NCBI RefSeq assembly: GCF_003334335.1
Contig: NZ_QOWQ01000170.1
From: Escherichia coli
GTDB lineage: Bacteria; Pseudomonadota; Gammaproteobacteria; Enterobacterales; Enterobacteriaceae
DNA: 569 nt
Direction: 5' to 3' (one strand)
The translations under genes and the position numbers were made by a program. The notes beneath the pieces are model-generated. The model saw only the letters and a list, made by a program, of their open reading frames with translations, ran no database searches and was not told the origin of the DNA. This document shows positions 1 to 569 of the stretch, piece after piece (positions within the stretch are counted from its first letter, which is position 1; each line of letters starts with the position of its first letter).

Positions 1-569
1 CCGGACCACCCGGACCACAGGGTCCGGCAGGGCAAACCGGCCCGAAAGGGGATAAAGGTGAACCCGGCGCAACAGGTCCGGCAGGTCCCGCAGGCCCTCG
101 GGGAGAAACCGGCCCCGCAGGTCCTGCGGGTCCCGCAGGCAGTGTCGCCAGTGTTCCGGATGCCAGCACATCGCAGAAGGGTGTGGTGCTGTTGAGCAGT
201 GCCACAGACAGCGCTGAGGAAAACAAGGCCGCCACGCCGAAAGCGGTGAAGGCAGCAATGGATGCGGCAAATGCAGCGAAACAGCGTGCAGAAGAGGTGG
301 CGAAGGCTGGGGCATCAGGCAGCAGTATGCCGGGACCCAAAGGCGATCAGGGGCCACCGGGGCCGAAAGGTGAAAAAGGTGAACCGGGAGCAACAGGCCC
401 CGCAGGAAAGGATGGTGCCGCCGGAGCGGAAGGTAAGGCAGGTCCGGCAGGGCCACGAGGTGAAAGGGGACCAGCGGGGGCGCAGGGTGTTCCGGGGCCA
501 CAGGGCCCTGCCGGAGGGCGAGGGCCGATGGGACCGCCCGGGTTGGATGGTAAAACCGGACCACAGGGA
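1..569 (+). CDS. Partial (5' and 3' truncated) phage/prophage tail fibre protein with collagen-like Gly-X-Y repeats; codon phase begins at nt 3
   Basis: Frame 3 (nt 3-569) is open for all 189 codons, while + frames 1 and 2 contain stops (TGA 193-195, TGA 247-249; TAA 53-55). Translation: [189 protein letters not shown]. Strict Gly every third residue over 15 and 26 consecutive triplets cannot arise by chance. Product call rests on recalled similarity of the central motif to phage tail fibre repeats; not verified by search. Confidence 0.85.
3..140 (+). repeat. Collagen-like triple-helix tract 1: 15 uninterrupted Gly-X-Y triplets plus closing Gly (coding repeat inside the CDS)
   Basis: Codons at 3-140 read [46 protein letters not shown]. 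Pro is enriched at X, and charged residues (K, D, E, R) occur in X/Y positions. Confidence 0.9.
141..332 (+). other. Non-collagenous interruption (64 aa) containing a phage tail-fibre-repeat-like motif (core about nt 177-263)
   Basis: Translation [64 protein letters not shown]. The core [11 protein letters not shown]...[12 protein letters not shown] matches my recollection of the consensus of the short repeat in lambdoid side tail fibre proteins (Pfam 'Phage tail fibre repeat'). Family assignment is from memory. Confidence 0.65.
333..569 (+). repeat. Collagen-like triple-helix tract 2: 26 uninterrupted Gly-X-Y triplets plus Gly, continuing past the window end
   Basis: Codons at 333-569 read [79 protein letters not shown], with no break in Gly periodicity. 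Confidence 0.9.

Follow-up and report, generated by a model that had tools for sequence, protein, structure and literature searches.

Mixed synonymous codons do encode the Gly-Pro-Ala (GPA) triplets at positions 75-140 of the 569-nt stretch of Escherichia coli DNA analysed here (the window), but their variety does not exceed chance and by the measures used is smaller. We consider it highly probable that the codon differences arose as triplet blocks were duplicated and deleted and then drifted neutrally at synonymous sites while purifying selection acted on the protein, with no need for selection that diversifies codons. The gene from which the window comes carries repeats of all ages, namely perfect 9-nt arrays of variable copy number, a 21-nt block with 19 matching positions and a block with 82% identity.

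Gene identity, reading frame and mosaic structure

The window matched exactly positions 2499-3067 of a locus (L005) from IMG/VR contig IMGVR_UViG_2563366825_000027 and covers codons 209-397 of a prophage gene for a side tail fibre of 500 residues (ORF L005 1877-3379). Frame 3 on the plus strand, with codons counted from position 3, was open through all 569 bases and its translation runs from Gly-X-Y repeats through a non-collagen insert to Gly-X-Y repeats again (Table 1). Significant Collagen (PF01391) matches numbered three in the translation of the window and three in the full protein, in line with a collagen-repeat protein. In the full protein, Pfam placed phage_tail_N (PF08400) at residues 1-134 (E = 3.6e-42) and Phage_fiber_2 at residues 263-303 (E = 1.3e-14) in the order Collagen, Phage_fiber_2, Collagen, and the overall layout reads PfN, putative coiled coil, collagen, Pf2 repeat, collagen, C-terminal domain. 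Between PfN and Col lies an Ala/Glu/Lys-rich stretch (around residues 105-134) whose sole Pfam match was to Alanine_zipper at a non-significant E value of 4.7. Upstream of the window, at about 2435-2458 of L005, the Gly-X-Y register of the first collagen domain is broken once, by G-D-P-G-G-P-P-G.

The best PHROG of the full protein was a tail fibre family (7.8e-130), and the closest GenBank/RefSeq matches were E. coli phage and prophage genes annotated as ‘tail fiber protein’ or ‘prophage tail fiber N-terminal domain-containing protein’. Upstream in L005 lies an ORF matching lambda_TipJ (E = 4.2e-189), of which the locus end leaves only a C-terminal fragment, and the downstream ORF matches tail-fibre PHROGs and is tail-fibre assembly-like. 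This order of gpJ-like, tail fibre and tail-fibre assembly genes is annotated in the loci L002 and L004 as well. The gene itself encodes a collagen-like side tail fibre of a lambdoid prophage. A Pfam search of its C-terminal ~90 residues (about 410-500; nt ~3105-3376 of L005) returned no match and did not find the PfC domain (PF06820) there. The C-terminal domain (GRLVPGEIYSIGTYIIAAL...FQRAY), which is presumably receptor-binding, is common to L005 and the tail fibre of phage PhiR5_2 (L001).

Differences between alleles numbered 406, 476 and 1245 at codon positions 1, 2 and 3 of frame 3, and dN/dS between alleles was 0.1-0.45 (blastn-based). The third-position excess together with these dN/dS values identifies frame 3 as the real coding frame, and the protein it encodes is under purifying selection. 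Long stop-free ORFs overlap the collagen DNA at L005 1980-3131 (-), 1862-2533 (-), 2170-2838 (-) and 2223-2693 (+), the longest having up to 383 residues. We set aside these ORFs of the opposite strand and of other frames; they look like artefacts of the periodic GGN-CCN composition, and allele differences concentrate on the third positions of frame 3.

The surroundings of the gene held a further ORF, located downstream of the tail-fibre assembly gene at L005 4454-5566 (+), with a signal peptide and running past the fetched locus. Pfam and NCBIfam searches of this ORF gave nothing significant and it was identified by direct comparison with an annotated YadA-like protein in L002, to the stalk of which its last ~110 residues are 76% identical; a DNA match to phage P-EibA was also found. 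These similarities suggest that the prophage carries an Eib-like trimeric autotransporter as cargo.

The tail-fibre gene has a mosaic structure. In 16 otherwise differing loci, which include the GenBank phages PhiR5_2 and PhiR12_3 and one RefSeq E. coli chromosome, the 66 nt of positions 75-140 were base-identical, and positions 1-160 as a whole were 100% identical to this 16-locus group. From position 401 to 569 the window was again shared at 98-100%, with the group of L001, L002, L003 and L008, and the L005 protein combines an N-terminus of L002 type with a C-terminus of L001 (PhiR5_2) type, the collagen tracts lying between the exchanged modules. Identity over 66 nt in loci that differ otherwise marks the segment as a module of the mosaic that was shared recently, and no allele-specific product of diversification. 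When the peptide at the Col-Pf2 junction was used as an anchor to see how distant homologues encode the GPA tract, only five close variants were recovered, the distant homologues having other junctions.

Table 1. Features of the window. Positions refer to the window, with positions in locus L005 in brackets where given.
Feature	Position	Strand	Basis
Coding frame 3	3-569	+	Open frame; Pfam phage_tail_N, Collagen, Phage_fiber_2; third-position excess
End of first collagen (Gly-X-Y) domain, 15 consecutive triplets (3-137) and final Gly	3-140	+	Pfam Collagen, window residues 1-47, E = 1.4e-08
Pf2 phage tail fibre repeat (PF03406), non-collagen insert between both collagen domains	165-290	+	Pfam, E = 3e-15, window residues 55-96
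Second collagen domain	327-569	+	Pfam Collagen, window residues 109-189
GPA region under study, two GPA blocks (GPAGPAG at 75-95; second at 111-140) separated by GPR-GET	75-140	+	Codon table; exact-match scan; region-only statistics
21-nt direct repeat, first copy (GPAGPAG)	75-95	+	19/21 nt match 120-140, 45 nt downstream
21-nt direct repeat, second copy	120-140	+	Region-only statistics; allele indels
3' two-thirds of perfect (CCGGACCAC) x 3.0 tandem array, GPP-GPP-GP	1-18 (L005 2490-2516)	+	Tandem-repeat scans
Start of perfect (GGACCACAG) x 2.9 tandem array, GPQ x 3	558-569 (L005 3056-3081)	+	Tandem-repeat scan
Perfect 2 x 9-nt tandem, AAAGGTGAA (KGE-KGE)	366-383	+	Tandem-repeat scan
Diverged 82% copy of 56-nt block 30-85 (GxxGPKG[DE]...)	351-406	+	Repeat family D1
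Mosaic segment	161-400	+	Binned identity: 95-98% to L004, 55-82% to loci matching 1-160 at 100%

GPA codons against synonymous shuffles

An earlier note on this DNA had pointed out that repeated GPA units are written with varying codons. In frame 3 the codons are exactly as it stated, GGT CCG GCA GGT CCC GCA GGC CCT at 75-98 and GGC CCC GCA GGT CCT GCG GGT CCC GCA at 111-137, and the variation it described is borne out. For a null expectation, synonymous codons were shuffled inside the window with protein and codon usage fixed. Against this null the 10 GPA units of the window gave 6 distinct 9-mers where 9.1 were expected (P(null ≤ observed) = 0.003), and repeated 9-mers were in excess (31 vs 12.2 expected, P = 0.004). 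The longest exact repeat in the window was 13 nt, compared with 12.3 +/- 2.0 nt in the shuffles. The same note had held that codon mixing keeps exact nucleotide repeats short; the codon variety stands, but an effect beyond chance does not, with a longest repeat equal to the null and GPA units less diverse than it.

Within positions 75-140, comparison of the five GPA units gave 15 matching third positions out of 30 (9.8 +/- 3.0 expected), two of the units being identical (GGTCCCGCA), and a 12-nt exact repeat links 84-95 with 129-140. The two copies of the 21-nt direct repeat share 5 of 7 codons where 2.2 are expected (P = 0.03). Elsewhere in the window, the perfect 2 x 9-nt tandems at 1-18 and 366-383 mean that identical peptides are not consistently placed on different codons.

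In the collagen genes, codon homozygosity was 0.26 (Gly), 0.30 (Pro, X position) and 0.38 (Ala, Y position). Because the codons of these three residues are used fairly evenly, two independent GPA units coincide at all 9 nt only ~3% of the time, and mixed codons are therefore the default. Since the shuffle null is conditional on the codon usage of the gene, evenness was compared between collagen and non-collagen parts of the same genes. Homozygosity was 0.259 vs 0.256 for Gly, 0.29 vs 0.50 for Pro and 0.37 vs 0.28 for Ala, and its product over a GPA unit was about the same in both parts (0.028 collagen, 0.035 non-collagen). The shift towards evenness for Pro points in the direction of a diversifying pressure, that for Ala is opposite and Gly is unchanged; with such mixed signs, a diversification hidden in flattened codon usage was discarded. 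Among Pro codons, CCG made up 0.42 in collagen parts and 0.68 elsewhere (76 related genes).

The excess similarity of the GPA units could come partly from codon-context bias instead of shared ancestry, and in the collagen parts of the 76 related genes Ala is indeed strongly biased to GCA (55% at collagen positions vs 36% elsewhere in the same genes) and the codon preferences of Pro differ between triplet positions, CCA and CCT being rarer in Y than in X. As the source of the excess in place of shared ancestry, such a bias (for example a preferred GGT-CCG-GCA or GCA-GG context) is nevertheless unlikely. A position-specific identity chance of 0.030 would give ~1.3 identical pairs among 45 in the window against 5 observed, the similarity spans multi-triplet blocks (19/21 nt at 45-nt spacing and 82% across 56 nt), and perfect multi-triplet duplications are present in relatives.

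Repeats of different ages, length variation and related genes

The perfect arrays of the source gene span 27 nt and 26 nt, and the window shows neither of them whole because its ends cut inside them. Among the adjacent identical tripeptide pairs of L005, 2 of 6 were nucleotide-identical, compared with 0.23 expected. The pair of blocks at 30-85 and 351-406 is an older intragenic duplication. The old diverged duplications that the earlier note had proposed as one alternative fit the finding that GPA units and larger blocks, including the 56-nt block at 82%, are more similar in nucleotides than independent codon draws.

Comparison of alleles showed that length changes in steps of whole triplets. 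The CCGGACCAC array is present in 1, 2 or 3 copies in 33, 17 and 3 loci, and a single 9-nt CCGGACCAC unit is the sole difference between L005 and both L002 and L008 across about 190 nt, the flanks being identical. The GPQ array likewise differs by a clean 9-nt indel, with two copies in L001, L007 and L008 and three in L003, L005, L034 and L035. Inside positions 75-140, L034 and L035 are without 45 nt, the GPA unit at 75-83 being joined to that at 120-128 via a shared CAGGTCC, and the absent 45 nt are exactly the interval between both copies of the 21-nt repeat. A further locus (L073) is without 63 nt, with the GPA unit at 21-29 joined to 84-92, and in L004 GET is followed by a single GPA in place of the three of the window, the absent 18 nt being flanked by CCCGCAGG. 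On these data, the indels of 18, 45 and 63 nt may be either deletions or duplications. Repeat units and observed indels (9, 18, 45 and 63 nt) are all multiples of 9 nt and the reading frame is always kept. Mixed codons do not prevent length change; the earlier note had held that they limit instability without removing it, and in-frame indels among alleles that end in GPA units agree with this. A simple-sequence contingency locus, with phase variation by slippage, was ruled out, as only length varies and there is no on/off switch.

To these observations we would fit the following mechanism. The segment would code for a stretch of the collagen-like, triple-helical stalk in the side tail fibre of a lambdoid prophage, and blocks of Gly-X-Y triplets would be duplicated or deleted via slippage or short-homology recombination. 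Each new copy would at first be nucleotide-identical to its source, and the third positions of Gly, Pro and Ala codons, being four-fold degenerate, would then drift neutrally with the protein held under purifying selection, until copies are lost again through deletion between short homologies. Slippage or short-homology recombination as the mechanism, the direction of the indels and the neutrality of synonymous change are the parts of this scheme that we infer.

The shuffle test was extended to related genes. From 83 loci (L001-L083) we obtained 76 distinct collagen-like tail-fibre ORFs of 19 to 107 triplets, of which 69 had at least 30 triplets and entered the test. On no repeat statistic did any of these 69 genes show repeat avoidance at z < -2 under synonymous shuffles. 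Repeated 9-mers reached z > 2 in 57% of them, a percentage that is indicative only because the genes share segments and are not independent, so that family-wide percentages overstate the effective sample size. Identical tripeptides were nucleotide-identical 667 times vs 443 expected in the same non-independent set, and adjacent identical tripeptides 6 times vs 6.3 expected. After dereplication, adjacent GPA-GPA pairs remained in 21 distinct contexts, with 0 identical (0.63 expected) and a mean of 2.19 differences (2.06 expected).

The earlier note would have counted its reading as refuted by long, perfectly identical repeat units in orthologues, as a sign of recent expansion with no codon diversification, and such units are found in relatives as perfect tandem duplications with periods of 45-117 nt. 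They have periods of 45 nt (71 nt identical; L037 and L039), 63 nt (68 nt; L046), 90 nt (107 nt; L018), 99 nt (107 nt; L027), 108 nt (107 nt; L074) and 117 nt (48 nt; L072). In phage PhiR12_3 (L003), 63 nt are repeated exactly at a spacing of 282 nt, and this repeat includes part of the GPA segment studied here. Eleven unrelated IMG/VR contigs were found to carry perfect (GGTCCGGCA) x 3-6 arrays, in several cases within long collagen-like ORFs.

Selection against replication slippage, which the earlier note had put beside old duplications, would keep neighbouring identical tripeptides on different codons and the length of the stalk stable. It would account for the lack of nucleotide-identical pairs in the 21 GPA-GPA contexts, for a 66-nt tract that is invariant in 16 loci while the adjoining perfect array varies in copy number, and for the more even use of Pro codons in collagen parts compared with the rest of the same genes. 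Yet 0 of 21 and the mean number of differences are what chance gives, the window's GPA units show less variety than chance would give, Ala codons are used less evenly in collagen parts and repeat depletion was seen in 0 of 69 genes. The same gene moreover tolerates perfect 27-nt arrays, relatives carry perfect duplications sharing up to 107 identical nt, and the GGTCCGGCA arrays occur in other phage contigs. With no statistic below the null in the window or in the 69 genes, GPA-GPA pairs at chance and perfect arrays of 27 and 26 nt in the same gene, this half of the earlier proposal is unsupported and we regard such selection as very unlikely. We find it just as hard to believe that the mixed codons would form a stabilised core flanked by perfect 9-nt arrays (GPP x 1-3, GPQ x 2-3) acting as fast in-frame length adjusters, which would tune the reach of the receptor-binding tip through different O-antigen or capsule layers, with the contrast between the two kinds of repeat kept by selection.

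GPA-coding DNA is quasi-palindromic, CCC-GCA-GG being the reverse complement of CCT-GCG-GG. That codon choices were shaped by nucleic-acid structure, with positions 66-150 folding as single-stranded DNA or mRNA into a long imperfect hairpin, is scarcely credible and was rejected: folded as DNA the segment has a minimum free energy of -25.7 kcal/mol (z = -3.5 vs dinucleotide shuffles) and arms (69-103 and 114-148) that are 71% complementary, but this signal vanishes under synonymous-codon shuffles (null -23.9 +/- 3.8, z = -0.48, P = 0.30), the hairpin being a by-product of encoding GPA because GGN-CCN-GCN-GG is quasi-palindromic whatever the third bases.

Relation to known collagen-like proteins and meaning

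Collagen-like proteins of E. coli prophages (EPclPs), their domain layout and the architecture of EPclB were described by Ghosh et al. 2012 (PMC3368898), who found GPK, GPQ and GPA to be the commonest triplets and Col domain lengths to differ by multiples of three residues. In the same work EPclA was characterized as a trimeric triple helix by circular dichroism, ultracentrifugation and electron microscopy, and collagen Gly-X-Y repeats were described as absent from laboratory strain K-12 (PMC3368898). The L005 protein shares with EPclB the PfN domain, the short Ala/Glu/Lys-rich linker and two collagen domains split by a Pf2 repeat; GPA, GPK and GPQ are among the commonest triplets of both, Col lengths vary by whole triplets, and both genes lie in the tail region of a lambdoid prophage downstream of gpJ. 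EPclA and EPclB are defined by PfC (PF06820), whereas the C-terminus of the L005 protein is without Pfam match and PhiR5_2-like instead. With no PfC match in its C-terminus, we therefore call the protein EPclB-like with a different C-terminal module and no strict member of EPclB. By analogy with the experiments on EPclA, the tract would belong to a trimeric stalk with a triple helix, which would keep the receptor-binding C-terminal domain at a distance from the tail.

Phage lambda Stf has the PF08400 N-terminus, the Pf2 repeat and the place between gpJ and a tail-fibre assembly gene in common with the L005 gene; unlike lambda Stf, the L005 stalk is made of collagen Gly-X-Y repeats. The Gly-X-Y tracts of BclA and Scl vary in length. 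Bacillus BclA, streptococcal Scl1 and Scl2, S. thermophilus phage antireceptors and virophage ORF8 all resemble the L005 protein in having Gly-X-Y tracts with in-frame indels in the number of triplets. For BclA and Scl the sequence similarity lies in the collagen part only, and across all these proteins the non-collagen domains are unrelated. Membership in Scl1, Scl2 or Lcl was rejected, NCBIfam scores being far below curated cut-offs and reflecting collagen composition only, and PDB matches to vertebrate collagens were set aside as composition only.

Collagen-like repeats have been suggested as recombination hotspots in phages, and a virophage collagen-like gene was reported with an in-frame 81-nt deletion across 27-nt repeats (PMC7242381). 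More generally, low complexity or repetitiveness of a protein and of its DNA are poorly correlated (PMC10124876). The L005 gene agrees with the literature on low complexity and ‘codon purity’ in that a repetitive protein does not need repetitive DNA, although that literature deals mostly with eukaryotic homopolymer tracts and the unit in L005 is a collagen tripeptide in a phage gene. The codon pattern, the type of protein and the whole-triplet length variation are of an already known kind, with no departure from the published picture.

Taken as a general point, any Gly/Pro/Ala-rich repeat in a gene that uses its codons fairly evenly will by default show mixed codons, which give no evidence of selection, and the synonymous-codon shuffling used here is a worked null for judging claims of codon diversification. 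As for the biology of these phages, whole-triplet indels and the exchange of modules in an E. coli prophage stalk, both already described for this protein family, bear on phage host range.
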